The translations under genes were made by a program, and so were the position numbers. Source: a virus. From it: a stretch of DNA of 64,000 bases. The stretch is taken from the IMG/VR virus record IMGVR_UViG_3300009509_001033, positions 5,804-69,803 of that record. The stretch is one strand, 5' to 3'. Below are positions 1 to 36,700 of the stretch, piece after piece (within the stretch, counting starts at the first letter, position 1; each line of letters begins with the position of its first letter). Below the pieces are notes generated by a model. The model was given only the letters and a program-made list of their open reading frames with translations, had not been told where the DNA came from and searched no databases.

Positions 1-404
1 TTCAGCAAGCAGGGGCAGTTCCTCTATTTCACTTCAATGATTATACTAATGCACTTCCTATTAGCAAGATGCCAGATATATATCAGGATATGGATGTCTT
101 CATTGTTGCATCAACAGAAGATGGTACTCCGAATCCAGCATTGGAAGCAGCAGCATGTGGAAGACCAATTATCTCTAATGCAATTGGAAATATGCCTGAG
201 TTAATAAAGAATGGATATAATGGCTTTATTGTGGAGAAGAGGATAGGGGCATATGTAGAGAAGATCAACTATCTTAGGAACAACAGACAAAAGCTTATTG
301 AGATGGGCAAGAATGCACGAAAGACCATTGAGGAAGAATGGACCTGGAAAATACAATCAGAGCATTGGAGAAGAATGTTCAGAGAGGTATTGGGATTGAT
401 ATGA
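1..404 (+). CDS. GT4 (GT-B) glycosyltransferase, 5'-truncated by window edge
   Basis: Frame open from position 3; GT4 motif STEDGTPNPALEAAACGRPIISNAIGNMPE..NGYNGF. Confidence 0.85.
   Translation, partial: QQAGAVPLFHFNDYTNALPISKMPDIYQDMDVFIVASTEDGTPNPALEAAACGRPIISNAIGNMPELIKNGYNGFIVEKRIGAYVEKINYLRNNRQKLIEMGKNARKTIEEEWTWKIQSEHWRRMFREVLGLI
144..196 (+). repeat. 53-bp perfect direct repeat, second copy 2957..3009
   Basis: GAAGCAGCAGCATGTGGAAGACCAATTATCTCTAATGCAATTGGAAATATGCC in both GT4 genes. Confidence 0.9.
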
Positions 405-1342
405 AAGTAGCTATATTGGGAAATACCAGATTAAACTATAGTTGGTTCGTATTGACACATAGACAGGGATTGAAGCTGAATGGTCATACCGTAATTGATA
501 TAGACTATAAGACAACTCCACTAATGGAGATCTATAATAGGCTTGTAAGTGAGAATCCTAAATATGTCTTTACACATTTAACATTTCATTCTCATATACA
601 TCCACCTGATGTTATACTTAATGTCTTGAAGCAGGTGAAGAATAAGACAGGAACTAAATTTGTTCATGTATTAATGGATGCTCGACATGAACCAAGGTAT
701 AATAAAGATATCTCAGATGTCTTCCATATGGCATTTGTGAATCAAACAGAAAACCTTGAAAAATTCCAGGATTATTGGAGGATACCAGTTATCTTTGAAC
801 CATATTGCTCATTGGTGCAAGAAGAATTGGCAAACCCTGTAGGTGAATTGGCATTTGGTAATCGGCTTATTTTTCCTGGCAGTCCTATGGCACATCCACC
901 ACGTAGGAATTTTTTACAGAGGGTACAGCAAATAATGCCGTTAGTATATTTGCAAACTCAGTCAGCAAATGATTTAAGGCATAGAACACCGGAACTGTCA
1001 ATATCAGCTAAAGCTATTCTATCAGCATGTATTGGATATGATATAATGCATTATAATGAAGTAAGACCATGGCAATATCTAGGTGCTGGTGCCTGTTTGA
1101 TACATAGGAAGTTTAAAGGTGAGGATGATTTAATACCAAGTGATCTCTATTTGGAATATAACTCACCAAAGGAAGTAAAAGAACAATTTACTAGAGCATG
1201 TAATGAAGATACAATGCCGATGAGAAAGAAGGCATTTGAGTTCATGCAGAAACACCATAACAGTAAAGTTCGAATGTATAATGTAATGGAGTGTCTTGAG
1301 GAAAGACAGTTTACTACTAATTCATTTATATGGGAGTTATAA
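401..1342 (+). CDS. GT-B glycosyltransferase, CgeB-like (start refined to 401)
   Basis: ATGA overlap with upstream stop; MKVAILG N-terminus; C-terminal RPWQYLGAGACLI..KAFEFMQKHH..RM resembles Glyco_trans_1_2/CgeB. Confidence 0.6.
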   Translation: MKVAILGNTRLNYSWFVLTHRQGLKLNGHTVIDIDYKTTPLMEIYNRLVSENPKYVFTHLTFHSHIHPPDVILNVLKQVKNKTGTKFVHVLMDARHEPRYNKDISDVFHMAFVNQTENLEKFQDYWRIPVIFEPYCSLVQEELANPVGELAFGNRLIFPGSPMAHPPRRNFLQRVQQIMPLVYLQTQSANDLRHRTPELSISAKAILSACIGYDIMHYNEVRPWQYLGAGACLIHRKFKGEDDLIPSDLYLEYNSPKEVKEQFTRACNEDTMPMRKKAFEFMQKHHNSKVRMYNVMECLEERQFTTNSFIWEL

Positions 1343-1560
1343 TGGCAAAGAAAATAATAGTATGTGAGGGCAAGAAAGTAAAACTAAAGCATCTAAAGAA
1401 AGGTCTCATTTTCAGTCTTCTTGAAAACCAGGAGTTCATAGGTAATTTTGAAGTAGCAGAGGAAATGGATGCTACAGGAACAGTAAAGGCAAGAATTGTC
1501 ACTCCTAGTATAGGTGAGAAGTGGATAGAGACTAAGTTTACAGAGGATGATTTGCAATGA
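1342..1560 (+). CDS. hypothetical protein
   Basis: Tightly packed ORF, GGAG upstream. Confidence 0.6.
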   Translation: MAKKIIVCEGKKVKLKHLKKGLIFSLLENQEFIGNFEVAEEMDATGTVKARIVTPSIGEKWIETKFTEDDLQ

Positions 1561-2180
1561 AAAATTATGTGAAGAACCAAATCGAAATTACAAATAAGAA
1601 TATGAAGGACAAGTATTTCTATCTTCATAAACAAAGACATGATGAATATGCAAACTGGCTTAAACCTCATGTTAAAAAGGATATGAAGGTTCTGGATATA
1701 GGTTGTAGAGATGGTAGCTTTCTTGAATCTCTAAGAAACATAACTGGAGTATGGCAATTGTGGGGAATAGAGCTTAATGAGACTGCAAGCATGATTGCAG
1801 GTGATAAGGGGATAATGGTATATAATGTTGATGCTCATAATATATCATGTGAGAACTTACCGTCATGTGGTATGGAATTTTATGATCTTGTGTGTATGAC
1901 TCATTTTCTTGAACATACTCATTCTCCTATGTTGGTCCTGAAGGAAGCTTTAAGAGTATTAAAGACAGGTGGGATGCTTTTGATTGAAGTGCCACTTGAA
2001 CCAATGCCAGATAAGCTACCCACACAGTGGGGTCACTATTTCACTTTTCAATCACATAGTGATCTGATTAAGTTACTTAATATGGTTCGTAGGGAAGAGG
2101 GATATAATTTTGAGACTGTCAAAGAGCTAAAAGACAAGAAGAAAAATAAATGGTATAGGATGCTGATAAGGAAGAAATGA
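1557..2180 (+). CDS. class I SAM-dependent methyltransferase
   Basis: VLDIGCRDG motif I, GIELN, FLEH..P..VLKEALRVLKTGG. Confidence 0.9.
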   Translation: MKNYVKNQIEITNKNMKDKYFYLHKQRHDEYANWLKPHVKKDMKVLDIGCRDGSFLESLRNITGVWQLWGIELNETASMIAGDKGIMVYNVDAHNISCENLPSCGMEFYDLVCMTHFLEHTHSPMLVLKEALRVLKTGGMLLIEVPLEPMPDKLPTQWGHYFTFQSHSDLIKLLNMVRREEGYNFETVKELKDKKKNKWYRMLIRKK

Positions 2181-3214
2181 AAAAACCCAAAGTAAGAAAA
2201 CCCAAAGTATATACACCTATTGATTATCCACCTCCACCATTGAAAGTTTCTCCATTAAAGGAATATGTATTCCCAAAAGTAAAGGGAAGACCTAAAGTAT
2301 TGATGATAGCTGATCAAAAGGGATGGGGAGCATGGAAAAGAGGTGAGTATATACAGAAGCTTTTATCTGATGAGTTTGAGCTAGATTTAATTGACCTACG
2401 AACTTTCTTAGATAATTTCGAAGATATCAAGGAGAAAAATTATAAGGTGCTCTATGCTCTGCTTCATATATTAATGAGATATGGTAAAGTCAGAGAGATG
2501 TCAGAGAAGATCAAGACAATAGCAACCGTGACATCTAGACAAATTCTTAAACCAAGCTTTGGTCATGAAATGGAAGCAAGGATAAAGAACTTTAGAATTT
2601 TTACAAAACATGTGAACATACTGATTGTCAATAATTTGCTCGTTAGGCCAGAAGCAGAGAAATATTTTCGTGGTCCTGTTAGATATGCTCCTAGGGGGGT
2701 AGATCCTGATGTCTTTAGGTTTACGAAATATCCTATGGACAAGCAGTTTACAGTCTTCTATGTTGGTAAGCCAGTAATTGAGAAGGGTCTTAAGTTTTAT
2801 ATAAAGCCAGCATGTAAAAGGGCAGGGGCTAGGTTGATAACTAATACAAGAAACTTTACTAATGCATTATCTGAGGAAGAAATGATGCTGGCTTATAATA
2901 ACTCCAATGCATATGTGGTTGCAAGCATAATTGATGGTACTCCAAACCCTGCACTAGAAGCAGCAGCATGTGGAAGACCAATTATCTCTAATGCAATTGG
3001 AAATATGCCAGAATTTATTGAAGAAGGTGAGAATGGATTTCTTGTCCCTATGGAGGTTAGTGCATATGCTAGTAAGCTAAAGTGGATGGTGAATAATAGA
3101 GAGAAAGCAGCAGCAATGGGACAAAGGGCTAGAGAAACAGTTTTAAAAGGATGGACATGGGATTATATACTTAACAAGTATCAAAGACACGTACTAAGAG
3201 AATTATTAAATTAA
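2177..3214 (+). CDS. GT4 glycosyltransferase
   Basis: PRGVDPDVF, YVGK..KG, DGTPNPALEAAACGRPIISN, EEGENGFLV. Confidence 0.9.
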   Translation: MKKPKVRKPKVYTPIDYPPPPLKVSPLKEYVFPKVKGRPKVLMIADQKGWGAWKRGEYIQKLLSDEFELDLIDLRTFLDNFEDIKEKNYKVLYALLHILMRYGKVREMSEKIKTIATVTSRQILKPSFGHEMEARIKNFRIFTKHVNILIVNNLLVRPEAEKYFRGPVRYAPRGVDPDVFRFTKYPMDKQFTVFYVGKPVIEKGLKFYIKPACKRAGARLITNTRNFTNALSEEEMMLAYNNSNAYVVASIIDGTPNPALEAAACGRPIISNAIGNMPEFIEEGENGFLVPMEVSAYASKLKWMVNNREKAAAMGQRARETVLKGWTWDYILNKYQRHVLRELLN

Positions 3215-3233
3215 AAATGGTAGGAGGTTTAAA

Positions 3234-3935
3234 ATGGTAGCAACACAACAAAAATGGAAAGTAGATCCAGAACTACATTCTTGTGATAGAGAAGATGGTA
3301 AGAAGGTGCTGGACTACTACACAACTTATGTGAAGGAGTTTCTAGATGCTGATCCTTTAAGAGATTGGGAGAGCATCGAAAGATGTAAGGAACTATGGAA
3401 GTTCTTTCTATCTCTGGATATCAAGCTACCTAAGAAATGCAGTGTATTGGATTGTGGTACAAAGGATGGTCAATTTCCAGCATGGCTTGTAGAGCAAGGA
3501 TATGAAGGTGTTGGTATTGAAATATCAAAGCCATATGTCAAATATGCTACTGATAGAGGTAGACCTGTAGAGTTCGGAGATGTCACAGATCTTCATTTCA
3601 AAGATAGATCCTTTAATGTGGCCTTTGCTCATCACCTATTGGGTTTGGTGCCTGATTACCAGAAGGCATATGAAGAGATGATCAGGACTGTTAAAGCAGG
3701 TGGTTATATAATCACTCTAGATAATATTCCTGGTAACCCAAGGAAGCATTATCAGCTTGTGGAAAGCCCAGAGCAATTAACACAGATGGTTGATGGTGCA
3801 TCTCTTAAGGTGGGTAATGGAGCACATGCAGTTGATCTTGTTTTCTTTGACTACTATCCACAGGGGTTTGAAAAGGGAAGAGAGTTCTTGACAGTGCTAC
3901 AGAGAAAACGTGGAGCACCAAGAAAGAAGAAATAA
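3234..3935 (+). CDS. class I SAM-dependent methyltransferase
   Basis: VLDCGTKDG, GIEIS, GDVTDLHFKDRSF, EMIRTVKAGG; AGGAGG RBS. Confidence 0.85.
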   Translation: MVATQQKWKVDPELHSCDREDGKKVLDYYTTYVKEFLDADPLRDWESIERCKELWKFFLSLDIKLPKKCSVLDCGTKDGQFPAWLVEQGYEGVGIEISKPYVKYATDRGRPVEFGDVTDLHFKDRSFNVAFAHHLLGLVPDYQKAYEEMIRTVKAGGYIITLDNIPGNPRKHYQLVESPEQLTQMVDGASLKVGNGAHAVDLVFFDYYPQGFEKGREFLTVLQRKRGAPRKKK

Positions 3936-3947
3936 GGAGACTAGAAT

Positions 3948-4655
3948 ATGAATGCTTTTATTGTGGCTCAACAGAGAACAGGGTCTACTTTGCTCTATGA
4001 GTTTCTAGATTCACATCCAGGAATATTCTGTGCAGATGAGCTATTTATTATCAAGGGGAAAATAGACTGGAGATTCAGAATGATCAAGGTCTATAATTGG
4101 TATAGGAAAAATAAGGGATGGACCCCAGACCAGTTTATTGATTGGGTTTTTAGTTTGTCTCAGCATTCGTGCATGAAACTTTTATATCACCAAATAGAAT
4201 TTTTCCATTTGCATGATAGAGTATTCAGTACACCTATAATTCATTTGACAAGGAGAAACTACTTTCATAGAGCAGTTTCACAGTTTGCAACTGTAGGCAC
4301 TATTAATAATAAAAAACCTGAAGCTTACATCTTGGATATAAAGGAAGCAATTAGAAGAGATGAAATGTGGGAAAAGGCATTTAAGGAGAATCTTAATACG
4401 AAAAAATACCTTAGAGTGTATTATGAAGATCTTGTTGGTAGACATGAGAGTGTTAGAAGAGCAAGGTACACTTTTATGAAAGAAAGTATTGGGAAAACTG
4501 TATGTAGCTTCTTTGGAGTTCCTTATTTCGAAATGTTTACATCAACACCAAAGGCACTTCAACAGAAGGACTATTGGAACTATATACCTGATAGACATAA
4601 GAAGCTACTTAAATTGATGTTGGAAAATAGCCTTCCAGAGAGTGTATGGAAATGA
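3948..4655 (+). CDS. PAPS-dependent sulfotransferase (Stf0-like)
   Basis: 5'-PSB motif QRTGSTLL..LDSHP....ELF; IIHLTRRN..RAVS; YYEDL. Confidence 0.8.
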   Translation: MNAFIVAQQRTGSTLLYEFLDSHPGIFCADELFIIKGKIDWRFRMIKVYNWYRKNKGWTPDQFIDWVFSLSQHSCMKLLYHQIEFFHLHDRVFSTPIIHLTRRNYFHRAVSQFATVGTINNKKPEAYILDIKEAIRRDEMWEKAFKENLNTKKYLRVYYEDLVGRHESVRRARYTFMKESIGKTVCSFFGVPYFEMFTSTPKALQQKDYWNYIPDRHKKLLKLMLENSLPESVWK

Positions 4656-5221
4656 GACTAAGTATTTTTAGCATGAAACGTAGTGGTCAACATGCCATTA
4701 TAAATTGGCTCTGTGAACAGGGCAAACCTGCTTTACATTTTAATGCATGTGAGCTTAACTTGGAGCCTAGAAATTTTATTGTTGAATATGGTAACGACAA
4801 AAAAGTTATTCACCATAAACGTGATTTTCAACCGTTGTTGAAAAACTACAAATTGGTGATATACAATTTTGAGGATATACCTGTTGTTGATACAGGCATG
4901 AAACGAATGATCATCATTAGAGACCCATGGAACTGGAAGGCAAGCAGAAAGAGGTCCAAATTGGCTCTGAGAGATGATATCTGGATACAACATGCACTCA
5001 ACCCTACCCCTAAAGTGCTCTTTAATAGGTGGGTAATGGAAGAGGAATATCGAAAAAACCTTTGTAAAAGTCTCTCTGTTCCCTTTACTGATGCAGGTTT
5101 CAGGGAAGTGTTTTGGCATGGCAGAAGTCATTTTGATAATATGAATGTGCTGGAGAGATTCAAAGAAGAGAAAGTGACAGTTTCACCTGAAATGGAAAAA
5201 TTATGGAAGGGCTTAAAGTAG
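4652..5221 (+). CDS. sulfotransferase-like protein
   Basis: MKRSGQHAIINWL (PSB-like loop) and IIIRDPWNWKASR (3'-PB-like). Confidence 0.6.
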   Translation: MRLSIFSMKRSGQHAIINWLCEQGKPALHFNACELNLEPRNFIVEYGNDKKVIHHKRDFQPLLKNYKLVIYNFEDIPVVDTGMKRMIIIRDPWNWKASRKRSKLALRDDIWIQHALNPTPKVLFNRWVMEEEYRKNLCKSLSVPFTDAGFREVFWHGRSHFDNMNVLERFKEEKVTVSPEMEKLWKGLK

Positions 5222-5790
5222 AAAAACCGGAAAATGAAAAACCTTCAGATTGGTATGATGATCATACAGGAAAGGGAAGGGCATTTTTCCAAAGTGAATT
5301 TCATCAAGAACTATATCCTGAGATAGTGAAGTTTCTAGATCGAAAGGATAGAATCATTGATTTAGGTTGTGGTGGTGGAAGATTGATACAGGCTCTTCAA
5401 AAAGAGTTCATTCCCAAAAGCTATCTAGGTATAGACTTTTCAAATGCTAGAGTTGAAGTAGCAAATTCTGCATATGGTGGTAAGTGGTCTTTCAAAGTGG
5501 GAGATATTACAAGATACAATAAGATCTATGAGAAGTTCGATACGTTTGTGTTGATTACCGTTCTTGAGCATATAAATGAGGATAGAAAAGTTTTAGAGAA
5601 TATACCATCTGGAAGTAAAGTAATAATGGCCAATCCTAATAAGATGTCTGAAAGTCATGTCAGACAATATATATCAGAAGAGTATATAATTGATAGATAT
5701 AATGATCTACTTGAGTTTCAGGATGTCAAGATATTATACAATGCTGATAGTAGTCCTAGAATGTTCATACATAAATGCAGGAGGTTATAG
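5203..5790 (+). CDS. class I SAM-dependent methyltransferase
   Basis: IIDLGCGGG, YLGIDFS, VLEHI. Confidence 0.9.
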   Translation: MEGLKVEKPENEKPSDWYDDHTGKGRAFFQSEFHQELYPEIVKFLDRKDRIIDLGCGGGRLIQALQKEFIPKSYLGIDFSNARVEVANSAYGGKWSFKVGDITRYNKIYEKFDTFVLITVLEHINEDRKVLENIPSGSKVIMANPNKMSESHVRQYISEEYIIDRYNDLLEFQDVKILYNADSSPRMFIHKCRRL

Positions 5791-6656
5791 TGGAGAGATT
5801 TGAGTTGGATGTTTTGATATGTGGATCAAGTAGACCTCAGTTGCTTATCTACTTACTGGAGTCATTGGAGAGATTTATTGTGTCACAATCTAAGAATACT
5901 GATTTTAGATTATTGATGCATGAGGATTTTGTTCAACCAGAAAAGAGCAAAGAGACAGTAGAATTGGCCAGAGAATGGGGAGCAAAAGTAATAGCACATA
6001 ATCCACCTATCGGGTATGGACCTGCAATGAAGCTAATGCTAGATAACCATATCAAAACAGAGTACATGCTGAACCTTCAAGATGATTGGGAGTTTGAACG
6101 AACAGGTATTGATATAGATAGAATCCTATGGACTATGGACAAACACTCTAAAATTAATTGCATCACCTTTAACAAGAGAAAGAATGACCAAGCAGGTCAT
6201 ATTGTCCCTAATGGGCAGTATAAATATGATGGTTTGTTATTGTCATTATCCAAAGCATGGCATGTATTACCAGGAGTGTGGAGAGTATCAGTGGCAAGAA
6301 ATAAATGGGTTCCAGCACAGTCTAATCCTGCTGGTGCTTTTATAAAAGAGTTTGGTGGAGTGACAGACAATAAAAAATTTTTAGAGGAACATGTTGGTGC
6401 ATACTTTTATGGACCAGCAGGGGATGAAAGATGGGTTAGGCATTTGGGGCATACATGGAAGACAACACCATGGGGAAAAAATAATCCAAAGCTTGAAGCT
6501 GATATATCAGCCATAACAAAATGGAGACCAAAGTGGTTGCCACTTGAAGCAAGACCTACTAATAAAAAAGTAACAATAAAACCACATAATGAAGAACACT
6601 TTTTAAAACTTTTAGAACAGATGCCAGAAGATGTAAAGAAAGAGTATAAACGATGA
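5775..6656 (+). CDS. GT-A (GT2-like) glycosyltransferase
   Basis: LICGSSRPQLL..L.SL, NPPIGYG, YMLNLQDDWEF, terminal RHLG. Confidence 0.7.
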   Translation: MQEVIVERFELDVLICGSSRPQLLIYLLESLERFIVSQSKNTDFRLLMHEDFVQPEKSKETVELAREWGAKVIAHNPPIGYGPAMKLMLDNHIKTEYMLNLQDDWEFERTGIDIDRILWTMDKHSKINCITFNKRKNDQAGHIVPNGQYKYDGLLLSLSKAWHVLPGVWRVSVARNKWVPAQSNPAGAFIKEFGGVTDNKKFLEEHVGAYFYGPAGDERWVRHLGHTWKTTPWGKNNPKLEADISAITKWRPKWLPLEARPTNKKVTIKPHNEEHFLKLLEQMPEDVKKEYKR

Positions 6657-7348
6657 ATGCCGTACAGATGAATAATACTAGAACAGGATCTACCCTGCTA
6701 TATAGACTTCTTAATTCTCATCCTTCTATATTTGCATGTGATGAGCTATTTGCAAAGGAGTCACCACATAACAAACGAATATGTATGCTCAGACCATATG
6801 AGTTCTATAAGAAGAAGATGTCTATATACGAGTACCTGAAGATGTTTTTCAGCTATAACTCTCATACATGTTTTAAGGTCATTCCCCATATCCATTTTAA
6901 AAACTATCCTGATCTGGCAGGTGTGATAAAAGGACTTCCAGTGATTCATCTTAAAAGGGATTATATAGCCAGAGCAGTTTCGGCCTTTGCCCATAACGGT
7001 AAGCTTGAGACTGTAACATATAAAGACTTTATTGATGAGATAGAAACAGCAGTTTTGATAGACAATTCCATTGAGTTGTTTGCAAAGAGCTTTCCTTCTA
7101 TTCAAGTTAATTATGAGTGGATGATAAAACCAGAGAGAGTTACTTATTATGGCAAGGAACTTACCTTTGCATCTAACCGTCTTAACAAAGTGGTAAGTGA
7201 CTTTTTCAAGGTTCCTTATTTTGAAATGTATGCAGATTCGGTAAAGGAACTTAAAGACGATTACTGGAGCTACATTAAAAAACCAATTGTAGAGAGGTTA
7301 AAAGAAGTTGCTAACGATTTGGCTACTAGGACTACCATCAGCAGGTAA
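6653..7348 (+). CDS. PAPS-dependent sulfotransferase (Stf0-like), paralog of 3948..4655
   Basis: TRTGSTLL..LNSHP....DELF; VIHLKR..RAVS; shared FF.VPYFEM. Confidence 0.8.
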   Translation: MNAVQMNNTRTGSTLLYRLLNSHPSIFACDELFAKESPHNKRICMLRPYEFYKKKMSIYEYLKMFFSYNSHTCFKVIPHIHFKNYPDLAGVIKGLPVIHLKRDYIARAVSAFAHNGKLETVTYKDFIDEIETAVLIDNSIELFAKSFPSIQVNYEWMIKPERVTYYGKELTFASNRLNKVVSDFFKVPYFEMYADSVKELKDDYWSYIKKPIVERLKEVANDLATRTTISR

Positions 7349-7844
7349 GACAACAATATCAAGAGAACTATGTGCCAAGCTTGCATCTATGGGCTATAAG
7401 GTGGAGCTACTGGATGGTGATGAAGTGAGAAAGAATCTTGGTGGTGGATATTCATATGAAGAGAGACATGCACAGATCAGGAGACTACGATACTTCTGTA
7501 AGATCCTTAACAAGCATGGTATAGTGCCTATAGTTGCTGCTATTACTCCTTACGAACTATGGAGAGTGGAGAACAGAAAAGAGATAGATCATTATCTTGA
7601 GGTCTATGTAAATGCCCCATTGGAGCTATGTCAGAAAAGGGACGTGAAAGGTCTCTATAAACGTGCTCTGGCAGGGGATATAAAGAATATGACTGGAGTG
7701 GATGATCCATTTGAAGAAGCTTACAATTCAGATGTTATATGTTATACTGATGATGAAGATGTAAGGCAAAGTGTAAATAAAATATATAACAAATTTGTGG
7801 AGGTTATGAAAAATGCCGTATATAGAGCCAGAGACAAAAAGTGA
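7308..7844 (+). CDS. cysC: adenylyl-sulfate (APS) kinase
   Basis: TIWLLGLPSAGKTT, LLDGDEVR, RDVKGLYKRA..G.IKNMTGVDDPFE. Confidence 0.95.
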   Translation: MLTIWLLGLPSAGKTTISRELCAKLASMGYKVELLDGDEVRKNLGGGYSYEERHAQIRRLRYFCKILNKHGIVPIVAAITPYELWRVENRKEIDHYLEVYVNAPLELCQKRDVKGLYKRALAGDIKNMTGVDDPFEEAYNSDVICYTDDEDVRQSVNKIYNKFVEVMKNAVYRARDKK

Positions 7845-8130
7845 TAGAAGAGAACAGATGGACAAGATTGTTGATCTGATGTTGGAACAGGATGTAAAGG
7901 TTGATGGTGACCTTAACTATATCCTGTTTTCTTTTTTCTGCAAGCACATGATGAAGATAGGTCCATCATATAACAAGATGAAAAACTTTCGTGGTGAGCT
8001 AATGGAAATTCATGATCATATAGAATCACGATTCTTGGTATACTACGAAAGAAACAAGATGGAAGAGAATGGTGATGTTCCTGGTGCAGAGGAACTAGTA
8101 GAGTTTATAAAGAATATGAATGATAAGTAA
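7813..8130 (+). CDS. hypothetical phage protein (DUF6899-like)
   Basis: MPYI..GDLNY..YE..K..ENGDV pattern. Confidence 0.55.
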   Translation: MPYIEPETKSDRREQMDKIVDLMLEQDVKVDGDLNYILFSFFCKHMMKIGPSYNKMKNFRGELMEIHDHIESRFLVYYERNKMEENGDVPGAEELVEFIKNMNDK

Positions 8131-8141
8131 GGAGAAATGAT

Positions 8142-8357
8142 ATGGCAATTGTACCCATTGATCTAACAGGAAGAGGAAGACCATCTGTTTTTCTCAGAAA
8201 GAAACCTACTTTTGGGCATGAGGATATATTGAGAAGAAGAAAGGTTCTTGGTGGTGGTTTCTCTAGACCTATTAAAACTGACCCACCAGTAAAGAAACCA
8301 AGAGAGAAGACAGAAATAGAATTATATTTGGAGAGAATAGGCTATGGTGACAAATGA
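8142..8357 (+). CDS. hypothetical basic protein
   Basis: AGGAG RBS, operon context. Confidence 0.55.
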   Translation: MAIVPIDLTGRGRPSVFLRKKPTFGHEDILRRRKVLGGGFSRPIKTDPPVKKPREKTEIELYLERIGYGDK

Positions 8358-8814
8358 TGATTGGTTAGATGAAGTATTATCAAAGACAGAAAAGCAGGAG
8401 ATAAAAGAACGTATAAAGCTTGCCATTGGTAGAATAGAGAATTTGAGAATTGATGAAGCACTGCTTTTTTTAAAGGCACTATATCATGATCTTGATGATC
8501 ATATTGAAGAGAGTGTAGAGAAGTTGCTAACCGATATTGAATCAATGCCACAACCAAAGTACTGGTCACAACCACATGTACATAAATTAACAGATGGTCA
8601 TTCTCATACTGCTAGTGGTACTTATACAGCATCAGTACCTAACTATGATGAAGATATAATTTCTGAGATACAGACAATAAGAGAAGAGTTATTGAAGATG
8701 CAAAAAAAACATGAGCAGCAAGTGATAGAAGAACGAATGTTAGCATTTGAAGAAGATGCTGAAGCAGAGCCATTTAAAGAATATATTAAAGCTATACGAG
8801 ATGGGAGATGGTAA
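8344..8814 (+). CDS. hypothetical protein
   Basis: GGAG RBS, overlapping neighbours. Confidence 0.6.
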   Translation: MVTNDDWLDEVLSKTEKQEIKERIKLAIGRIENLRIDEALLFLKALYHDLDDHIEESVEKLLTDIESMPQPKYWSQPHVHKLTDGHSHTASGTYTASVPNYDEDIISEIQTIREELLKMQKKHEQQVIEERMLAFEEDAEAEPFKEYIKAIRDGRW

Positions 8815-9049
8815 TATGGAAACAGGAACAGATGCAGCAAAAAAGAGTTTAGTAGAGCAAAGAGATGAACATTTGGAATTGATAACAATGGAGATCAATG
8901 ATTTAAGAACCATACTGCTTCCTGCTGAAGGTTTTGATGAAGCAGATGGAGAGGTTTTCATTACTATCTATATTCTTAGAGTTATAGGTGGATGGATATA
9001 TTGGAGTGATGATGTTAACATGAATGTATTTGTACCGGAGAGGAAGTAA
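8747..9049 (+). CDS. hypothetical protein (true start probably 8816)
   Basis: Operon context. Confidence 0.5.
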   Translation: MKKMLKQSHLKNILKLYEMGDGNMETGTDAAKKSLVEQRDEHLELITMEINDLRTILLPAEGFDEADGEVFITIYILRVIGGWIYWSDDVNMNVFVPERK

Positions 9050-9267
9050 TGATATTACTGGATGATATTGCTGAGACAATAAGAGTAGGTGATATGATGA
9101 TAACATATGATGAAGCATTTTATCTGCAACTTGATAAAGGCAACCAGACCTTTATTAATTCATTTAGATGGATATATGCTTATGATCATATTCATCCAGA
9201 AGGTGGTGAGCCAGATCATGAGAAGATTTTGGCCTATTTGGGATTGCCTGGAGGTGGAGACAGATGA
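9049..9267 (+). CDS. hypothetical protein
   Basis: TAATG coupling to upstream ORF. Confidence 0.55.
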   Translation: MILLDDIAETIRVGDMMITYDEAFYLQLDKGNQTFINSFRWIYAYDHIHPEGGEPDHEKILAYLGLPGGGDR

Positions 9268-10085
9268 AACGAATACTTGTGACCGGAAGTAGAGGATATA
9301 GAGGAGAGAATTTGTATAAGTTCCTTGAGAGTGCAGGATATGATGTAATTGGTATAGATTCTAAAAAGGGACAACGTGCAGAGAAGTTTCCAATGTATGA
9401 TAATATAGATGGTATAGTTCACTTAGCTGCAATCCCAGGAATAGCAGCATGTGAAGACAAGCCAGCAGAAGCTATAGTCAGTAACTTGGAATCAACTATC
9501 TATATGTTCAATATATCCAGGAAGAAAGGCATTCCATGTGTGTTTACATCATCTCAAGCTGCAAAGGAACCCAAGTCGAGTATATATGCATTTACTAAAT
9601 ATGCATCTGAAGTCATAGGGAATAGGCTTATTGATGAAGGTGCTAAAATAAGGATACTGAGACTGTCAAATGTATATGGTGGTTACAATTACCTGGAGAA
9701 GAAAAATTCTGTAGTAGCTAGGTTTGCAAAGGCAACATTAGCTAGAAAGCCTTTCGTAGTGCATGGTCATGGCACACAAATTCGAGACTTTATTCATGTA
9801 GATGATGTTTGTAGAGCAATATATTTAGCTCTTCTTACAGAAAACGTAGTAGATCTTCCAATTGACATCGGAACAGGTATAGGAACCCAGATCAGTACAG
9901 TTGCCTTCTATTTCCAACAACTTTTTCGTGCCAAGTTTACATTTGACTTTTCATCTGATAGAATAGGTAAAGAGAGTAATATAGCAGATACTAAAGATGC
10001 AGAAAAAGTTCTGGGCTTTAAAGCTGAAGATAGATTGGTGCAGTATGTAGAATCATTGAGAGAGGAATATAATGGACACAATTAG
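9264..10085 (+). CDS. NAD-dependent NDP-sugar epimerase/dehydratase (extended SDR)
   Basis: VTGSRGYRG, HLAA, YAFTK, LRLSNVYG, GTQIRDFIHVDD. Confidence 0.92.
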   Translation: MKRILVTGSRGYRGENLYKFLESAGYDVIGIDSKKGQRAEKFPMYDNIDGIVHLAAIPGIAACEDKPAEAIVSNLESTIYMFNISRKKGIPCVFTSSQAAKEPKSSIYAFTKYASEVIGNRLIDEGAKIRILRLSNVYGGYNYLEKKNSVVARFAKATLARKPFVVHGHGTQIRDFIHVDDVCRAIYLALLTENVVDLPIDIGTGIGTQISTVAFYFQQLFRAKFTFDFSSDRIGKESNIADTKDAEKVLGFKAEDRLVQYVESLREEYNGHN

Positions 10086-10182
10086 AGTCTATATACTAGC
10101 AATCAAATATTGGCTTAGTGGTGATGAATGGAAGTTTGCCAAGGAGTATGCAGAAGCTCTAGTAAAGGGATTTAAGAAATGA
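10072..10182 (+). CDS. 36-aa hypothetical protein not in the ORF track (MDTIRVYILAIKYWLSGDEWKFAKEYAEALVKGFKK)
   Basis: GAGGA RBS; fills the gap and ends in ATGA overlap with next gene. Confidence 0.6.
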   Translation: MDTIRVYILAIKYWLSGDEWKFAKEYAEALVKGFKK

Positions 10183-11209: not shown

Positions 11210-11212
11210 ACA

Positions 11213-11584: not shown

Positions 11585-11593
11585 GAGGATGAA

Positions 11594-13134: not shown

Positions 13135-13157
13135 CTTGCATCCTAACTCTATAGCTG

Positions 13158-28578: not shown

Positions 28579-31500
28579 TTATGGATTTCCATATGCAGGT
28601 GTCCATCCAGCAGGAGGGGCAACACTGCTTGCCTTTATCCAATCAAAAGTAACACCAAAGGATATAACAGCAGGTGGATTGACAGGATCTTCATCGGCAT
28701 GGTTTGCAAACAAGCCAATGAAACCTGACTTTCCTGCAAATTGGCTAATAGTCCAGTTTCCTATAAGATTCCAGGTAGTGCCATTGTTTGACCACCATAC
28801 AGAAATACTAGTATTTGATCTATAGATTTGGAAACCCAAATTCATATCTGTATTTCCTGCTGCTGATCTTGTAGATCCAACACCATTTATTACTTGTCTT
28901 ACCTCTCTCTTTTCACCATCTGCATAAGTTCTCCAAGCACCGAACCAGTTCAAATGGTCAATCCAGAAGAACATACCACATCTCTGCCAGTTTGAACTTA
29001 CCCAGAAAGAAGGATTGATTCTAAAGAAACAGTTAATAGTAAATACTGAAGAACCCACATAGGAAACGGCATAAGCCATATTTTGTGTATCAGTGGAAGC
29101 TCCATCACCGGACCACATTTGCATCCCATTACTTCTACCAACTTGACCCCATGTTAACCAATGTGGAGCTAGATTAGAAGAAGCACCATATGATGTATCA
29201 AAGAAATCATATCCAGGGAAGAACATTTCATCAAAACATGGTAGAGTTGAAGCTGGAGTATATAATGGTGTTCCACCAACTGTTTCTATTGTATCTATGC
29301 CCAATCTTCCTCCACCACCATAACCCCATTTCCAGGTTCTACATCCTTCAGGTCTTTGCTCTAAGCCAATATTATGGTAGTACCCTGCTTTGATATCTGT
29401 AAAAGAGATTGCTTTACCAACAGGATCAAACAAATCATCACGATAATCGTCAGTCCATATTGATCTAGTTCCAGGTGCAAGATTATAGCCAGGACCAATA
29501 CCACTTGCTAACCTGTCGAAAATCCAACTTCTATATACTGATATAGGAGAACTATAATTAGTACCAGAAGATTCTATTCCAAGAGCACAACCATGACTAA
29601 CTCCAGCTTCTTCACCTCTACCCCATGCCCATACAGAACCATCTTCTTTTAATCCCATGGAGTGTAAAGAACCTGCTGCCATTTTTACAAATTTGTGACC
29701 TCCAGCAATTGGTGTTGGTGATCCTCTGTTGGTTTGTGTACCATCACCAACTTCTCCATAATCATTAGTACCCCATCCAAAGGCATTACCACCAACATCA
29801 CAACCAAGAACAGTGTAGTTAGTTCCAGGGGAAATCATTCTCCAATTATAATCACCATAAACGGATACTGGAGTGCTTGCATCACCTCCTGGTGCTCCAA
29901 GAGCACCATCATAATCTCTTCCCCATGCCCATGCTTCACCATTTGCTTTGATTCCAAAGGTTGTTCTACCATTACATACTAAGTCTACAAAAGAATGTCC
30001 ACCAAAAACGGATACAGGAGAACTTCTTGAAGTATTAGGAAGATTGGCACCAAGTTCACCATATGTATTACCCCCCCAACACCATACAGAACCATCGGCT
30101 TTCATACCACATGTATGAGAAAACCCTGCACAAACTTTTTCAAAAACATGCCCACCAGCAACGGAAACAGGGTAGCTACTGTCAGTTGTTGAATTGTTAC
30201 CCAATTGACCTGCTGAATTATCTCCAAATGTTCTGGCAGTTCCATCTACTTCTAATACGATGTTATGATAAGTTCCAACACCTATTGCTTTAAAACTTCT
30301 GGATTTAATTAAAGTTGGAACCCACCTATCGGTAATATCACCTATACCTAATTGACCTTGACTGTTATCTCCCCATCCCCAGAGAGAACCAGACATTAAA
30401 GTAGTTTGGTAAGCACATTCTATATCAAACTCACATGGTAGAGGTATTGCAACTGGAGTAGATGTTGGATTATCACATGGAATATCTCCCCATTGCCATA
30501 TTTGACCATTTGCATCTAGAGCATAACTGTATTGTGTTCCAGCAGCAATGTCAATAATGTTTGAAAGTCCTGGTACTGAAATTGGAGATGATTTATTAGT
30601 TGTAGTACCATCACCTAATTGCCCTCCAGCATTGTCTCCCCATGCCCACACTTCATCAATTTCCGATATTGCTAGGTTATGATTGTCACCTGCTGCTATA
30701 TCTTTGAAGAGAATATCAGTTGGAACTAATGTTGGGGATGCTTTAACTGTTTCAGGTGTAATTTGAGCTAATGATGTTGCAGTGGGTATTGATTTTCCTG
30801 CTGTTGTATTATCACCAATATGTTGCCAACTACCCCATGCCCAGACTTGACCATCAGAGTCAATAGCAACAGTTCCACTCTCACCACCAATTACAAAATT
30901 AACAAAACTATATGACTGACCACTTCCAAGAACTGATGTTGGGCTTGATACAACAGTAACAGTGCCAACACCACACTCTCCATTATTGTTTTCTCCCCAC
31001 ATCCAAAGGGAACCATCTGCTCTAAGGAAACCGTGAGTTGCTGATTGTATTCCAGTTGCAACTTTGATTGCATTATGTGGTGAACCCAAAACTATTGTTG
31101 GAGTGCTTCTGTTTATCGGACCTCCCATAAAAGCCCAAGGTGGAGACATAGCATTGTAGTATTCGTTATAACCACACATCCAAACATTACCACTATTATC
31201 TAACCATATAGAATTAGCTTCTCCCATACTTGCATTTTTCCAAACTGAGGGCCAACCCACACCTGTAGCCACAGGGTCAGGTGACCCTCTGCCTGTTGTA
31301 TCATTTGTACATAGTCTACCTTGGCTATTTTCCCCCCAGACAAACCCACCACCAGCAAAGTCAAGAGTTAGACCACCATTTGAACCCATAGAGAGAAGTT
31401 TGTGTGCTCTTGCTATAAATGGATGAGTACAACCAACACCACAAGCAGAGTGCATAATTGCTTCTACATCTTTTGGGCTTGAAAAACTAGTTGCTCCACC

Positions 31501-32469
31501 AAGACCTGCTAATGGATACTGACCTGTATTCCCCCAACAGAATAGATATCCAAATTCGTCTAAAGCACATGCAGTATTACCAGCACCAGTAGCACCAATC
31601 CAGAATTTGTAGGCACCAGAATAGAGAACCGATGTTGGAGATGATTTATTAACTTCCCATTGACCATTTCCAAGATTTCCTTGAGTTGCTTCCCCCCACA
31701 TCCACATAGAACCATCTTCTTTAATTGCCCATGATTGATTGTCTCCAAATACTCCAATACCTGCACAAACTCCAGGAACACCACAAGCTTCATCTCTATC
31801 TAAAGCAGAGTTAAGAATATTTCTTGTATCTGCTGCCCATCCTTGAGGTCCAGCTACGGTAACAGGAGAACTTCTATCGGTTAAAGTACCATCTCCAAGT
31901 AAACCCCATCCAGGAGAAAAAACATAGTTAAGACCCCACATCCAAAGTTTTCCTGTATTACGATCTATTGCACCAGAAAAACCAGTAGAACCAGCACCAA
32001 TTGCTCCTATTTCAAATTGAACTCCACCAAGCTGACCAGCATCATCACATCCCCATGACCATACAGTACCGTCTGCTTTAAGACCTATAGAGTGGCATTC
32101 ACCAGCATCAACCTTAATAAATTCGTGATCACCAAGGACAGAAACAGGAGAAGATGCAGTAACAGGAGCAGTTCCAGTGCCTAATTGTCCAGTTGTTCCT
32201 CTACCCCATGACCATAGAGAACTATTTCGTTTTAGACCTAGTATATGATACCATCCAGCAGCAATATAGTCGAATTTATGAATACCAGCAACTATACCTG
32301 GAGTGCTTTTTCCTGTAAGAGTACCATCACCTAATTGACCGTATTGGTTGTCTCCCCATGAAAAAACTCTACCGTCATTCCTAAGTCCATAACCAGACTT
32401 AAGACCTGCTGTTACTTGAGTAAAAATTCCATCTGACAAAACTGCTATTGGACTGCTTCTATCTGCCAT
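28579..32469 (-). CDS. RCC1/BLIP-II repeat protein with C-terminal ConA-like domain (putative virion adhesin)
   Basis: Many WG.N..GQLGDG...SSP repeats; aromatic beta-rich C-terminus. Confidence 0.8.
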   Translation of the reverse strand: MADRSSPIAVLSDGIFTQVTAGLKSGYGLRNDGRVFSWGDNQYGQLGDGTLTGKSTPGIVAGIHKFDYIAAGWYHILGLKRNSSLWSWGRGTTGQLGTGTAPVTASSPVSVLGDHEFIKVDAGECHSIGLKADGTVWSWGCDDAGQLGGVQFEIGAIGAGSTGFSGAIDRNTGKLWMWGLNYVFSPGWGLLGDGTLTDRSSPVTVAGPQGWAADTRNILNSALDRDEACGVPGVCAGIGVFGDNQSWAIKEDGSMWMWGEATQGNLGNGQWEVNKSSPTSVLYSGAYKFWIGATGAGNTACALDEFGYLFCWGNTGQYPLAGLGGATSFSSPKDVEAIMHSACGVGCTHPFIARAHKLLSMGSNGGLTLDFAGGGFVWGENSQGRLCTNDTTGRGSPDPVATGVGWPSVWKNASMGEANSIWLDNSGNVWMCGYNEYYNAMSPPWAFMGGPINRSTPTIVLGSPHNAIKVATGIQSATHGFLRADGSLWMWGENNNGECGVGTVTVVSSPTSVLGSGQSYSFVNFVIGGESGTVAIDSDGQVWAWGSWQHIGDNTTAGKSIPTATSLAQITPETVKASPTLVPTDILFKDIAAGDNHNLAISEIDEVWAWGDNAGGQLGDGTTTNKSSPISVPGLSNIIDIAAGTQYSYALDANGQIWQWGDIPCDNPTSTPVAIPLPCEFDIECAYQTTLMSGSLWGWGDNSQGQLGIGDITDRWVPTLIKSRSFKAIGVGTYHNIVLEVDGTARTFGDNSAGQLGNNSTTDSSYPVSVAGGHVFEKVCAGFSHTCGMKADGSVWCWGGNTYGELGANLPNTSRSSPVSVFGGHSFVDLVCNGRTTFGIKANGEAWAWGRDYDGALGAPGGDASTPVSVYGDYNWRMISPGTNYTVLGCDVGGNAFGWGTNDYGEVGDGTQTNRGSPTPIAGGHKFVKMAAGSLHSMGLKEDGSVWAWGRGEEAGVSHGCALGIESSGTNYSSPISVYRSWIFDRLASGIGPGYNLAPGTRSIWTDDYRDDLFDPVGKAISFTDIKAGYYHNIGLEQRPEGCRTWKWGYGGGGRLGIDTIETVGGTPLYTPASTLPCFDEMFFPGYDFFDTSYGASSNLAPHWLTWGQVGRSNGMQMWSGDGASTDTQNMAYAVSYVGSSVFTINCFFRINPSFWVSSNWQRCGMFFWIDHLNWFGAWRTYADGEKREVRQVINGVGSTRSAAGNTDMNLGFQIYRSNTSISVWWSNNGTTWNLIGNWTISQFAGKSGFIGLFANHADEDPVNPPAVISFGVTFDWIKASSVAPPAGWTPAYGNP

Positions 32470-32472
32470 GTT

Positions 32473-35400
32473 TTATCCATCTCCTAATTGTCCTAGGGCA
32501 TCATCTCCCCATGCCCATATCTTGCCATCCTCATCAATACCAAGGGTGAAGTCTCCACCACCTGACATATCAATCCATTTCTTATTTCCTATTACTTGCA
32601 CTGGAGAACGTCTATTTGTTATTGTACCGTCACCAAGTTTTCCATCAGTATTACAACCCCATGCCCATGCTTGCCATGAGGTAGTACATTTTAATAATGT
32701 TGAATGTAAATAATTACCAGTGTTAGGTAGTAAGTTTACACACTCTTCTGCTCCGATTGCTCCACAATGTGGAATACTTCTAGCACTCTGGTCAGTATGA
32801 TGAAGCAATTTTCCATATTCACCTGCTCCCCATGTACAAATAGTTCCATCCTTTTTTAATGCATATGTATGCATTTCACCAGCAGCAAAATCAATAAATG
32901 TGTGATCACCATAAACAGAAGTTGGTGTGCTTTTCTGATCTAATGAATTAACTCCAAGCTGACCATAATCATTTCTGCCCCATGCCCATACTTTATAATT
33001 GCTATCTAAGGCAATATTGTGGTAACCACCTGCATCAATGTCAATAAAATCCTGACCACTTGCAGGAACTTCACCACCTGATGGTAAAATAGGTATTTCA
33101 TCTCCAGTATCAACACCTATAGTTCTAATTATTTCTTTACCATTAACAGCAACACCAATCCAGTCAACAAAACCTGCTGTATCTGCTAACATGCCCCAAT
33201 CTGCTCCAAATCCCCAAGTACCAGCACCAGTAATGTCATTATCCTCTATTATCATATCCCATCCTCTTGGCATAGGATATCCATAAGGCCAAGCTTTGCC
33301 TTTTAGTATATTTCCTTGGATTCTGAGCCTAATCCACATCCAATCTCCGTTTCTCCAAAGATTGCCTTGTAATGGGACATAAACACCTGTATCAGTGTTA
33401 TATCCAGGGCAACGGTGATGTCCAGGATTTTCAACACAGAATACACAATGTCTAGGTACAAGCATTTCTCCTAGACTAGTAAACGAACCATTTACAATTT
33501 TCATCATTCTTACTCCACCATCATTTCCATGGTTAAAGGCAAAACGATAATATGTATTAGTGGTTTGGCTTATATCTTTAACTCTTCCACAAATATGGAG
33601 AAAGTCATGATAACTTTCATCACCATGTAGTTTCATTAAAGCTAATATATCTTGATCTTCATAATTATCTAGTATTCTGTTGGCAATAATATTGTCATTA
33701 GTAGCACCTGAATGTTTTCTTCTTGCAGTCACAGGACCGAATTTATTTGTTGTTCCAAAATCTCCAGGGTCAATAATTGTCCATTCACCATTTGGATATT
33801 GTCCATGCTCCCAATCATTGCTAAATCCCAATCCAGGACCAAAACATGGGTGTGTTCCATATTGGCAGAAAAATCCAAGAGAGAATGTAATTCCACCATC
33901 CCAACAACAATAGCCAGAATATTCTGTATATTGGCTGAAATCTGTATACCAATCGGGTGTTATTATTTCCTGTTGTCCTGGAACTTCTATTGCTGCTTCA
34001 GTTCCACCACCACCAGCACCAATATCAATACCTGCTGCTGTTGATGCTTGTGTAAATGTATTGTCTCCCCATGCATATACTTGACCATCTTGAGCCAATG
34101 CTAATGAGTGCTCTGCTCCAGCAGCAACTTTAACATATTTCTTTGATGGAAGACCTGTAACAGCAACCGGAGAACTTCTGTTAATTAAGTCACCTACTCC
34201 CAATTGTCCTTTATTATTTCTGCCCCATGCCCATACACTTCCTGTTGAATCAATTCCAAGAGAGTGATAGAGTCCAGCAGCAGCAGTTTCGAATCTTCCT
34301 ATACTTCTTGGTGAAGCTTGATTTGATAAGAATCCTAATAGATATTGTGCTTCATCTGCTGGAAAGTAAGGACTTGTTTTTCCTTGTACTGCAAGAACAC
34401 TTACCGGAGAACTAAAGCTTGTACTTCTAAAGTTTCCATATGGAAATCCCCATCCCCAGAGAAGACCGTCTTCATCAAGTGCAAAAGTAGAATTTGCTGC
34501 ACAAATAATTGTAACAAAGGAACGTCCACCTACTACTGATTTTGGAGAATTTCTTTGTGTTCTTGTATTGTCACCTAACTGTCCGTAGGTGTTCCATCCC
34601 CAACACCATGCAGTACCGTCACTTGCTCTTAATGCACATGTATGTCTATATCCACATGAGAAATCTTTCCAGCCACTATTATCATTAATCGGTCCTGCCA
34701 CTGCAACCGGAGCACTTGTCCAATTACCTGTAGTATCCCCTAATTGATTATAATCATTATATCCCCAACAGAAAATTCTACCACCACTTTTTCCTATATC
34801 TGATGCACAGGCAAAATTTTGTCCTTGGTCAACATGTGTTACATACCATCCTTGTTCACATTGATAATCAAGCAGTCCTTGTATCAAGTAAGGGACAGGC
34901 ATTTCATATGGAGCACAACATGTTACTGGTGAACTTCTATGTACATTATCCCAATCAGGTACTTTCCATTGAGCACCTGCTGCCATTAGAATCCCTCTAG
35001 TTTGAACCCCTCTAATTCTATAACCCCAATCAGGTACTTCCTCTCTTCCTAAAAGATTGTCACTCCATCCAATAGTAAAGGTGTTATCATATTCGGCACT
35101 AACATGACCTACTTTACCCCAAAGAGGAAGTGCAATTGGAGATGTTACACTATTAGTATTACCTCTTCCTAACTGACCATAGTTGTTATATCCCCATCCG
35201 TATAAAGTACCATCTTCACCTATGGCAAGACTATGATTAGATCCAGCATCAACTATTCCTTTCTTTCCACAACTATTACACATTAAGTCTGTTCCAGGTC
35301 TCATTACCTTTACCCCTCCAGGTAGAGGAAGGACTGCTCTTGGAGTGCTAGTATTTACTAAGGCACCAATACCACATCTATGGTAGTTATTATAGCTACA

Positions 35401-36696: not shown

Positions 36697-36700
36697 ATTT

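Follow-up and report, generated by a model that had tools for sequence, protein, structure and literature searches.

The 64,000-nucleotide stretch analysed here (the window) corresponds to bases 5804-69803 of the 69,803-base linear IMG/VR virus record IMGVR_UViG_3300009509_001033, whose completeness is estimated at 33% by CheckV. Positions 1-7844 form a single co-directional block on the plus strand, in which glycosyltransferase (GT), methyltransferase (MT) and sulfotransferase (ST) genes are interleaved and lead into cysC, a predicted adenosine 5'-phosphosulfate (APS) kinase gene (Table 1). CysC makes 3'-phosphoadenosine 5'-phosphosulfate (PAPS), the donor used by sulfotransferases. On balance, the gene content and its comparison with other viral records make it probable that cysC provides a dedicated PAPS supply for a sulfated, methylated glycoconjugate made by the phage.

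Table 1. Genes of the operon and other features of the window (window positions; aa, amino acids; ORF, open reading frame; SAM, S-adenosylmethionine)
Feature	Position	Strand	Evidence or remark
GT794, two-domain GT of 794 aa, 3' end (C-terminal 133 aa)	1..404	+	Glycos_transf_1, 65 bits
GT334, Glyco_trans_1_2 (CgeB-like) GT	338..1342, start probably M22 at 401	+	Pfam below cut-off; PF13524 in the Atlas
76-aa ORF within the operon, no function assigned	1330..1560	+	ORF list; no family match
MT207, class-I SAM methyltransferase	1557..2180	+	Methyltransf_23, E 5.5e-19
GT345, GT4 glycosyltransferase	2177..3214	+	Pfam, 70.9 bits
MT233, class-I SAM methyltransferase	3234..3935	+	Methyltransf_11, E 1.1e-14
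ST235, Sulfotransfer_3 sulfotransferase	3948..4655	+	51 bits, cut-off 27
ST191, divergent sulfotransferase-like protein	4646..5221	+	Large family without Pfam model; profile and structure level only
MT195, class-I SAM methyltransferase	5203..5790	+	Pfam, E 1.3e-12; present or absent among natural variants
GTA293, GT-A-fold glycosyltransferase, QDDW motif	5775..6656	+	AlphaFold2 model, Foldseek
ST231, Sulfotransfer_3 sulfotransferase, ST235 paralogue	6653..7348	+	30.7 bits, cut-off 27
CysC, APS kinase, full length, TTG start	7308..7844	+	PF01583, TIGR00455
DUF6899 protein overlapping the cysC end, no role assigned	7813..8130	+	Pfam
NAD-dependent sugar epimerase/dehydratase, likely nucleotide-sugar supplier	9264..10085	+	Epimerase, E 4.7e-34
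vWA/TerF-like protein	10418-11209	+	Downstream of the operon, same strand
GMP reductase/IMPDH-family protein	11869-12930	+	Downstream of the operon, same strand
Queuosine-salvage-family (PF10343) protein	14463-15347	-	Possible tie to 7-deazaguanine metabolism
GT8 + GT9-like two-domain GT, 550 aa	26882..28534	-	44 nt downstream of the fibre genes
Three giant RCC1-repeat fibre-like proteins (1296, 1407, 1487 aa)	28579..41164	-	RCC1-type repeats; candidate acceptor

The first-pass annotation, made from the letters of the window alone, had described a tightly coupled operon with four glycosyltransferases, three SAM methyltransferases, three sulfotransferase-like genes and CysC, and this description holds. 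In the ORF list, neighbouring genes either overlap by 4-41 nt or stand 11-19 nt apart, and the tight packing extends downstream at least to 8357. The four GT genes, recognized by Pfam, the Atlas or AlphaFold2 (AF2) and Foldseek, carry five GT domains; the three methyltransferases are of class I, and two sulfotransferases are firm, the third (ST191) being probable from profile and structure comparison. The description also needs one correction, as the first GT is truncated by the edge of the window: the full protein has 794 aa and combines GT2 and GT4 domains. The operon thus begins upstream of the window, its first gene starting 2.4 kb upstream in the record. Still further upstream, the record encodes an HNH endonuclease, a 404-aa epimerase/dehydratase and a 333-aa protein that belongs to no known family, besides three small ORFs. 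In a scan of 1-14000, no plus-strand terminator-like site was found inside the 7844-base cluster except at 11-25, and neither the sigma-70 nor the terminator scan gave a signal higher than in shuffled sequences. The T4-type late-promoter motif TATAAATA occurs 11 times in the record, about as often as a rough composition-based estimate of chance predicts; since the copy upstream of the operon sits in an HNH-bearing insertion that is missing from a close relative (L004, below), we draw no conclusion from it on the timing of expression.

CysC is a full-length predicted APS kinase that scores above a curated cut-off. The match to PF01583 (151.4 bits) covers profile positions 3-151 of 152, the score on TIGR00455 is 170.8 (cut-off 138.7), and that on the subfamily model NF002059 is 193.8, under its cut-off of 244. 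An alignment with four other viral APS kinases has 32 invariant columns, including G8, G13, K14, T16 and D36-G37-D38 as well as R111-D112 and K114-G115-L116-Y117, residues that we take to represent the P-loop, DGD and KGLY-type motifs. The cysC gene overlaps that of ST231 by 41 nt.

Among the sulfotransferases, ST235 and ST231 share 35% identity. In the ST235 family (12 sequences), the loop R10-T-G-S-T-L-L and the residues R108..V110-S111 are invariant, and the RTGSTLL loop aligns with the loops of solved sulfotransferases; the match of the family profile to these structures is confined to the PAPS-loop region. We presume that the two conserved elements of ST235, like those of ST191 described below, are the 5'-phosphosulfate loop and the 3'-phosphate motif. 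The family is rare: a word-based search among 5.8 billion proteins returned 11, including ST235 itself, and four true metagenome loci were found. A further candidate locus (L007) was rejected as a false positive, the protein being an acetyl-CoA hydrolase.

The third sulfotransferase-like protein, ST191, has no match in Pfam, PHROG or NCBIfam. It shares with four close homologues an invariant K-R-S-G-Q-H loop and an R92-D-P..A99-S100 motif, both of which resemble PAPS-binding motifs. For the Atlas model of the exact ST191 sequence (pTM 0.81), seven of the ten listed structural neighbours carry sulfotransferase families, with TM scores of 0.64-0.71, and the top three of the ten are unannotated. 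A profile search of 1.84 billion representatives gave 2095 relatives. The profile built on 96 members of the family matches the solved sulfotransferase 5X2B (E 0.01) across the R-D-P...A-S motif, and five of the 96 match Sulfotransfer_1, weakly. Four of ten long members are fused to GT-type domains, and one of the ten (P0139) scores 26.7 bits on Sulfotransfer_3. The bacterial relatives were also considered in their genomic context; seven of 17 loci and 51 of 88 ORFs were annotated, L041 (annotated like L040) and distant ORFs having been dropped. GT genes adjoin the ST191-family match in six of the seven. Taken together, these data suggest that ST191 is probably a sulfotransferase, from a family without a model and tied to glycan genes.

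Two of these bacterial loci deserve separate mention. In a Deltaproteobacteria metagenome-assembled genome (MAG; L035, 6014-10771), a 1585-aa protein combines a methyltransferase, a GT4 domain, DUF3880/Glyco_trans_1_2 and a C-terminal ST191-like domain; it lies 2.2 kb from a flagellin gene (13015-13899), beside a GT2-TPR protein, and may be an enzyme of flagellin glycosylation and sulfation. In a Pyrinomonadaceae MAG (L040), a homologue of the vWA protein of the window (35% identity) is found near an ST191-like gene.

The glycosyltransferases are of several kinds. In GT794, Pfam recognizes a GT2 domain at residues 45-149 (37.2 bits) and a GT4 domain at residues 682-768 (63.4 bits). GT334 reaches 20.7 bits on Glyco_trans_1_2, below the cut-off of 25, and 29 of its 30 nearest ESM-Atlas clusters, mostly viral, carry PF13524; because the Atlas record begins at residue 22, its start codon would span the stop of the preceding gene. 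GTA293 belongs to no Pfam family. Its AF2 model has a pLDDT of 93, and, among the 30 homologues found, every one has D104 and at least 90% share Q102, D103 and W105. Foldseek matches it to the GT-A enzymes TarP, TarS, SpsA, GnT-I and the GT domain of LH3 (E about 1e-8). The top match is TarP, the prophage-encoded wall-teichoic-acid glycosyltransferase of Staphylococcus aureus (PDB 6H2N and others; E 9e-9, TM 0.51), with an identity of just 12-14%, so that the match gives the fold class and nothing on the substrate. A phmmer search of PDB sequences with ST191, GTA293, GT334 and the upstream 333-aa protein returned nothing meaningful. Two epimerases/dehydratases accompany the one listed in Table 1, the 404-aa protein upstream of the window and another at 19925-20899 on the minus strand.

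The first-pass annotation had also proposed that cysC serves sulfation here and is not a general gene of sulfur assimilation, and the comparison with other viruses supports this. Searching IMG/VR with the five-kinase alignment gave at least 195 relatives of CysC, of which the best 80 were kept; 27 of these match over at least 133 residues, and 25 could be searched as whole records. PAPS reductase was found in none of these 25 records, and canonical ATP sulfurylase in two, both giant-virus bins. Sulfotransfer_3 is present in seven of them, Sulfotransfer_1 in six and the ST191 family in three, so that 11 of 25 carry a sulfotransferase of some kind. Records whose kinase matches only the N-terminal 80-100 residues of CysC had been intended as a control. 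They proved to be linked to sulfotransferases themselves (Sulfotransfer_3 in 23 of 49) and were therefore kept as a second set, and 14 other viral records, chosen via an unrelated gene, served as the control; Sulfotransfer_3 is present in none of them. Compared with this control, which is small and not matched for genome size, Fisher's test gave p = 0.003 for 11/25 and p = 0.002 for 30/74. The 49 short-kinase records (L095-L144), in which Sulfotransfer_3 matches are strong and contigs often tiny, may contain a truncated APS kinase tied to sulfation.

The immediate neighbourhood of CysC points in the same direction. As tblastn with the GT and MT proteins was too insensitive on the viral CysC loci, we used Pfam on 142 ORFs of at least 146 aa lying within 3.3 kb of CysC in 22 phage-type loci; four giant-virus loci were left out, as was L092, whose query match has the same coordinates and E-value as that of L091. 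A Pfam sulfotransferase was found near CysC in nine of the 22 (ten, counting the ST191-like gene of L090), and a glycan gene, that is a GT, a nucleotide-sugar enzyme, an FkbM methyltransferase or an ST, in 17. Six loci (L068, L069, L073, L080, L081, L082) have a small CTP_transf_like protein of about 150-190 aa adjoining the APS kinase or, in L068, fused to it. Since no canonical ATP sulfurylase was found in the 23 phage-type CysC records searched, this protein is a candidate minimal sulfate-adenylylating enzyme. In our record, neither PAPS reductase (PF01507) nor ATP sulfurylase (PF01747) nor a CTP_transf_like protein was found over the whole 69.8 kb, which extends the earlier remark that ATP sulfurylase is missing from the window. 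In four of the 22 phage-type loci, DUF2061 adjoins the APS kinase or is joined to it in one protein; this 'predicted membrane protein' was seen fused or adjacent to viral APS kinases in L017, L071, L074, L075 and L082. In L017, a DUF2061-APS kinase fusion stands between a Sulfotransfer_3 gene and an ST191-like gene, the three being surrounded by GT2s, epimerases, a TylF methyltransferase and a UDP-glucose dehydrogenase. In L008, a similar cluster of GT, MT and epimerase genes has no CysC.

Natural variants of the operon were found among metagenomes. In the close relative L004, which lacks the HNH insertion, syntenic genes are 80-98% identical, and L003 shows 81-94% identity. Between flanks that are 86-94% identical, L004 carries at the place of GT345 an allele with 40% identity to it; the 76-aa ORF, between flanks of equal conservation, is just 62% identical. 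In L005, the ST235-like gene and CysC are kept, with three other genes in between, one of them a Methyltransf_24. Contigs of the DNA run X5 and of the RNA-library run X19 join 5208 to 5796 or 5208 to 5812, which reveals a form of the genome without MT195. Furthermore, X5 contigs diverge into unlike sequence at 6131 and enter from unlike sequence at 6322, 7312 and 7329. Single-gene swaps of this kind between near-identical genomes would be expected of an exposed structure under diversifying selection and not of a housekeeping pathway. The stretches of X5 without contig cover (about 6.7-8.0 kb and 8.7-10.0 kb) and the patchy cover of the RNA library were not used as evidence. Contigs of the RNA library match pieces of the cluster without mismatch, for example 400-668, 1986-2253 and 2819-3079, and with two differences over the end of cysC (7634-7845); because DNA may be present in RNA libraries, these matches are not proof of transcription. 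As for the HNH endonuclease gene, it is inserted together with two small ORFs (L002:2463-3641) between the epimerase and the operon, and its absence from L004 suggests that it is probably a mobile homing element. On the opposite strand, a 114-aa ORF with three hydrophobic segments (1326-1670) overlaps the poorly conserved 76-aa ORF and is probably a shadow ORF.

The phage origin of the contig, as a fragment of a T4-like myovirus, is confirmed by its predicted genes. On the minus strand, PHROG matches include a tail sheath (E 1.6e-103), baseplate wedge and hub proteins, a tail protein, a UvsX-like recombinase and a gp46/gp47-type nuclease. None of 2714 matching phage records has a tail sheath more than 41% identical to this one, the nearest being from Pelagibacter, Methylophilales, Sinorhizobium and Stenotrophomonas myophages, so that this uncultured sediment phage would be a distant member of the T4-like group. 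When 50,697 phage records were searched, megablast found no match to 1-8200 and tblastn none to ST235 or GTA293, and what tblastn did find was weak: five records for CysC, at 36-43% identity, and three partial matches for GT794. Scans of IMG/VR with single proteins or with the ST235 alignment, and a scan of genome contigs with that alignment, gave no relative. Eighteen DNA runs hold 81% or more of the words sampled from 1-8200; they come from six studies whose labels are marine sediment, estuary, mangrove or soil metagenome, and four of the rows may be the source itself.

The best explanation for this gene content is that the operon encodes a soluble cytoplasmic line which would build and tailor a glycan. 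Phage epimerases/dehydratases would adjust the nucleotide sugars of the host, and the five GT domains (GT2, GT4 twice, Glyco_trans_1_2 and GT-A) would assemble an oligosaccharide, to be O-methylated by the three SAM methyltransferases and sulfated by the three sulfotransferases. CysC would convert host-made APS into PAPS and so keep the sulfate donor from running short during infection, thereby serving sulfation and not cysteine synthesis. The acceptor would most likely be a protein of the phage particle, which would receive a charged glycan coat varying between strains. The order of the steps, the O-methylation of sugars, the sulfation of the glycan and the nature of the acceptor are what we infer from the predicted enzymes.

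Where would such a glycan be attached? The enzymes are presumably soluble, as no 19-residue window of any cluster protein reaches a hydropathy of 1.6. Together with the GT8 + GT9-like gene that follows the RCC1-repeat genes, this favours the virion over the host envelope. In 11 of 14 other viral loci, homologues of the GT9-like half stand 164-318 nt behind a region of the same strand that codes for RCC1 repeats. The arrangement, present in L052-L056 and L058-L063 (in six cases within a complete genome of about 43-51 kb), looks like a conserved fibre-GT pair, and in the two loci inspected RCC1-repeat and GT9-like proteins are encoded by separate adjacent genes. This synteny points to fibre glycosylation in the lineage and does not by itself tie the main cassette to the fibres. 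Further hints at a protein acceptor are the L035 fusion protein encoded near a flagellin gene and the virion glycosylation known in mycobacteriophages. We therefore place the acceptor on the virion tentatively, with the RCC1-repeat fibres as first candidate.

Several observations weigh against this interpretation. The main cassette belongs to a plus-strand block with metabolic genes (vWA, GMP reductase-like), outside the structural module, which occupies the minus strand from about 26.9 kb on and contains the separate GT8 + GT9 gene as its sole GT; no striking Ser/Thr-rich tract was found in the structural proteins. The methyltransferases are generic class-I enzymes that score far under the cut-offs of sugar-methylase models. 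As to ST191, hhalign gives its family and that of ST235 a probability of 3%, no support for common descent, and the AF2 model obtained from a five-sequence alignment was unusable (pLDDT 43.8). Beyond the modest control mentioned above, CysC lies within 10 kb of ST191-family genes in only one (L017) of 26 viral loci collected with the ST191 alignment, suggesting that phage sulfotransferases usually draw on host PAPS and that CysC is an optional extra; it was found at none of the 17 bacterial loci, within the reach of their sequence. With a record of 33% completeness, absences are in addition weak evidence. Finally, three of the bacterial loci look like exported-polysaccharide loci, and these fit a target in the host envelope equally well: L036 has sugar aminotransferase, acetyltransferase and GT genes, L037 an ABC-transporter ATPase and Sulfotransfer_4, and L038 a Wzx-like flippase and Sulfotransfer_3.

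These loci bring us to a rather unlikely alternative that has to be taken seriously, namely that the operon builds or decorates a lipopolysaccharide O-chain, a capsule or an exopolysaccharide on a carrier lipid at the cytoplasmic side of the membrane, leaving export to the host; receptors would thereby be masked against superinfection, or the surface of the infected cell altered. Apart from the company kept by the bacterial ST191 relatives, the resemblance of GTA293 to the wall-teichoic-acid enzymes TarP and TarS, the best (sub-threshold) NCBIfam matches of the GT4s, which are to exopolysaccharide and PEP-CTERM-type GTs, and the cassette swapping, which suits a surface antigen, all agree with it. 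However, the hallmarks of an exported sulfated-polysaccharide locus, an initiating transferase with Wzx/Wzy or ABC export, were not seen in the 69.8-kb record, about one third of the genome: we found no initiating phosphoglycosyl transferase, flippase, polymerase or other export gene there, and no ORF with four or more hydrophobic segments, as expected of a polytopic membrane protein. Slow export of a polymer would moreover be of little gain to a lytic T4-like phage, and the fibre-linked GT8 + GT9 gene points to the particle. The first-pass annotation had correctly noted that flippase and polymerase are missing from the window, and had taken this to favour a cytoplasmic acceptor. That argument is weak, because the record covers about a third of the genome and the host could supply export, and because bacterial relatives of ST191 stand in ordinary exported-polysaccharide loci that also encode a Wzx-like flippase or an ABC transporter. 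Of the three targets it had named, virion, host surface and DNA, the first two are retained and DNA is unlikely, no TAGT having been found in the record. An acceptor other than virion, host envelope or DNA seems improbable to us.

A quite different possibility is that the sulfotransferases act on something other than a glycan, be it a lipid, a small metabolite or the tyrosines of phage or host proteins; in that case, GT and MT genes would have a separate function in the same operon. Substrate specificity cannot be read from the ST families, and the best solved matches of the ST235 profile are indeed a polyketide sulfotransferase and protein-tyrosine sulfotransferases (E 9e-4 to 0.2). We nevertheless judge this very improbable: STs are interleaved with GTs and MTs gene by gene, the ST191 family is fused to GT-type domains or flanked by glycan genes in the cases counted above, and viral CysC loci are rich in nucleotide-sugar genes.

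That cysC is an ordinary auxiliary gene of sulfate assimilation for cysteine, with its ST neighbours there by accident, follows the published reading of phage cysC (the available part of PMC10914622, which also associates cysC with larger phage genomes) and is hardly credible here, given that neither the record nor the 25 related ones contain PAPS reductase, that no cysH or cysDN/sat lies beside cysC in the record, that cysC and the ST231 gene overlap, and that the link of CysC to sulfotransferases is kept in L005, in L017 and, within 3.3 kb, in ten of 22 loci. The enzyme family is the same as in the published cases; the difference is that, here and in the related viral records, cysC comes with sulfotransferases and glycan genes and never with PAPS reductase. 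Equally remote is a hypermodification of phage DNA, with glycan, methyl and sulfate groups on modified bases: the queuosine-salvage-like gene of the window and the gene row of L090 are in its favour, but TAGT is absent, the GTs of the operon belong to polysaccharide or protein-glycan families, and general scans, which included no search aimed at those families, turned up no base-hydroxymethylase or TET-type gene. We know of no sulfated DNA. Phage GTs that add varied glycans to DNA have been published, according to the available part of PMC12619734. In L090 (7355-13952), genes for a TET-associated glycosyltransferase and an ST191-like protein are lined up with those for a radical-SAM/SPASM enzyme, an APS kinase and a DNA polymerase III alpha-UDG fusion, so that sulfated DNA glycans are a possibility in that phage.

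The operon is kin to two known kinds of gene cluster, the glycosylation cassettes of phages and the sulfation modules of bacteria. NodP/NodQ with NodH in rhizobia and RaxP/RaxQ with RaxST in Xanthomonas are dedicated modules of the second kind, and bacterial sulfated-polysaccharide loci pair cysC with a sulfotransferase. Our reading of the operon shares with these modules a private PAPS supply beside the sulfotransferase that uses it, apart from sulfur assimilation; it differs in its phage setting, in the presence of the kinase step alone (ATP sulfurylase and a small CTP_transf_like protein being absent from the record), and in the grouping of three STs and three MTs in one operon. Virion glycosylation cassettes were reportedly described in the mycobacteriophages Che8, Corndog and Myrna by Freeman et al. 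in 2023, some of them said to include methyltransferases. Virion glycosylation is known in mycobacteriophages (PMC12619734); as far as the available part of that source describes it, soluble GTs encoded by the phage glycosylate its capsid and tail proteins while these are in the cytoplasm, to which our operon is alike by description, and neither sulfotransferase nor APS kinase is reported there. The present main cassette is also much larger, belongs to a T4-like myovirus and is neither in nor next to the structural operon. The T4-like cyanophages P-SSM2, S-SCSM1 and S-SCSM2R have cell-wall/lipopolysaccharide gene clusters of unproven function (PMC12801897), which likewise place a block of many GTs and nucleoside-diphosphate-sugar epimerases in a T4-like myovirus; the available part of that paper never mentions a sulfotransferase.

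A preprint on viral organosulfur genes (bioRxiv 10.1101/2021.01.05.425418) mentions cysC 27 times, and sulfotransferase or sulfation not at all. Sulfotransfer_3 genes are present in OM43 phages and in a Synechococcus phage, and their function is stated to be unclear in the available part of the report (PMC10580990). When the available literature was searched for phage or viral sulfotransferases by name, nothing was found, and a broader term search brought up no entry on phages. Probably, then, no phage-made sulfated glycoconjugate has been described in the literature searched, and a methylated, sulfated phage sugar chain would be new.

A broader proposition, which we regard as doubtful though worth stating, is that tailed phages coat their own particles, here the RCC1-repeat fibres, with a polyanionic, methylated and sulfated glycan for which phage enzymes alone are responsible, working in the cytoplasm, and which varies by cassette swap, and that phage cysC as a class provides the donor for this sulfation and does not serve sulfur assimilation. 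If this were true, sulfated glycoconjugates would be a normal part of the biology of phage particles in sediments and waters. Should most phage cysC genes supply sulfotransferases, this widely counted viral sulfur-cycle gene would have to be read differently, and counting it would misjudge how far viruses influence sulfate assimilation. The compact and soluble nature of the operon should allow it to be expressed and its product to be analysed directly. A charged and variable glycan on virions or infected cells would matter for adsorption, for adherence to particles and mucus, and for the evasion of host defences.

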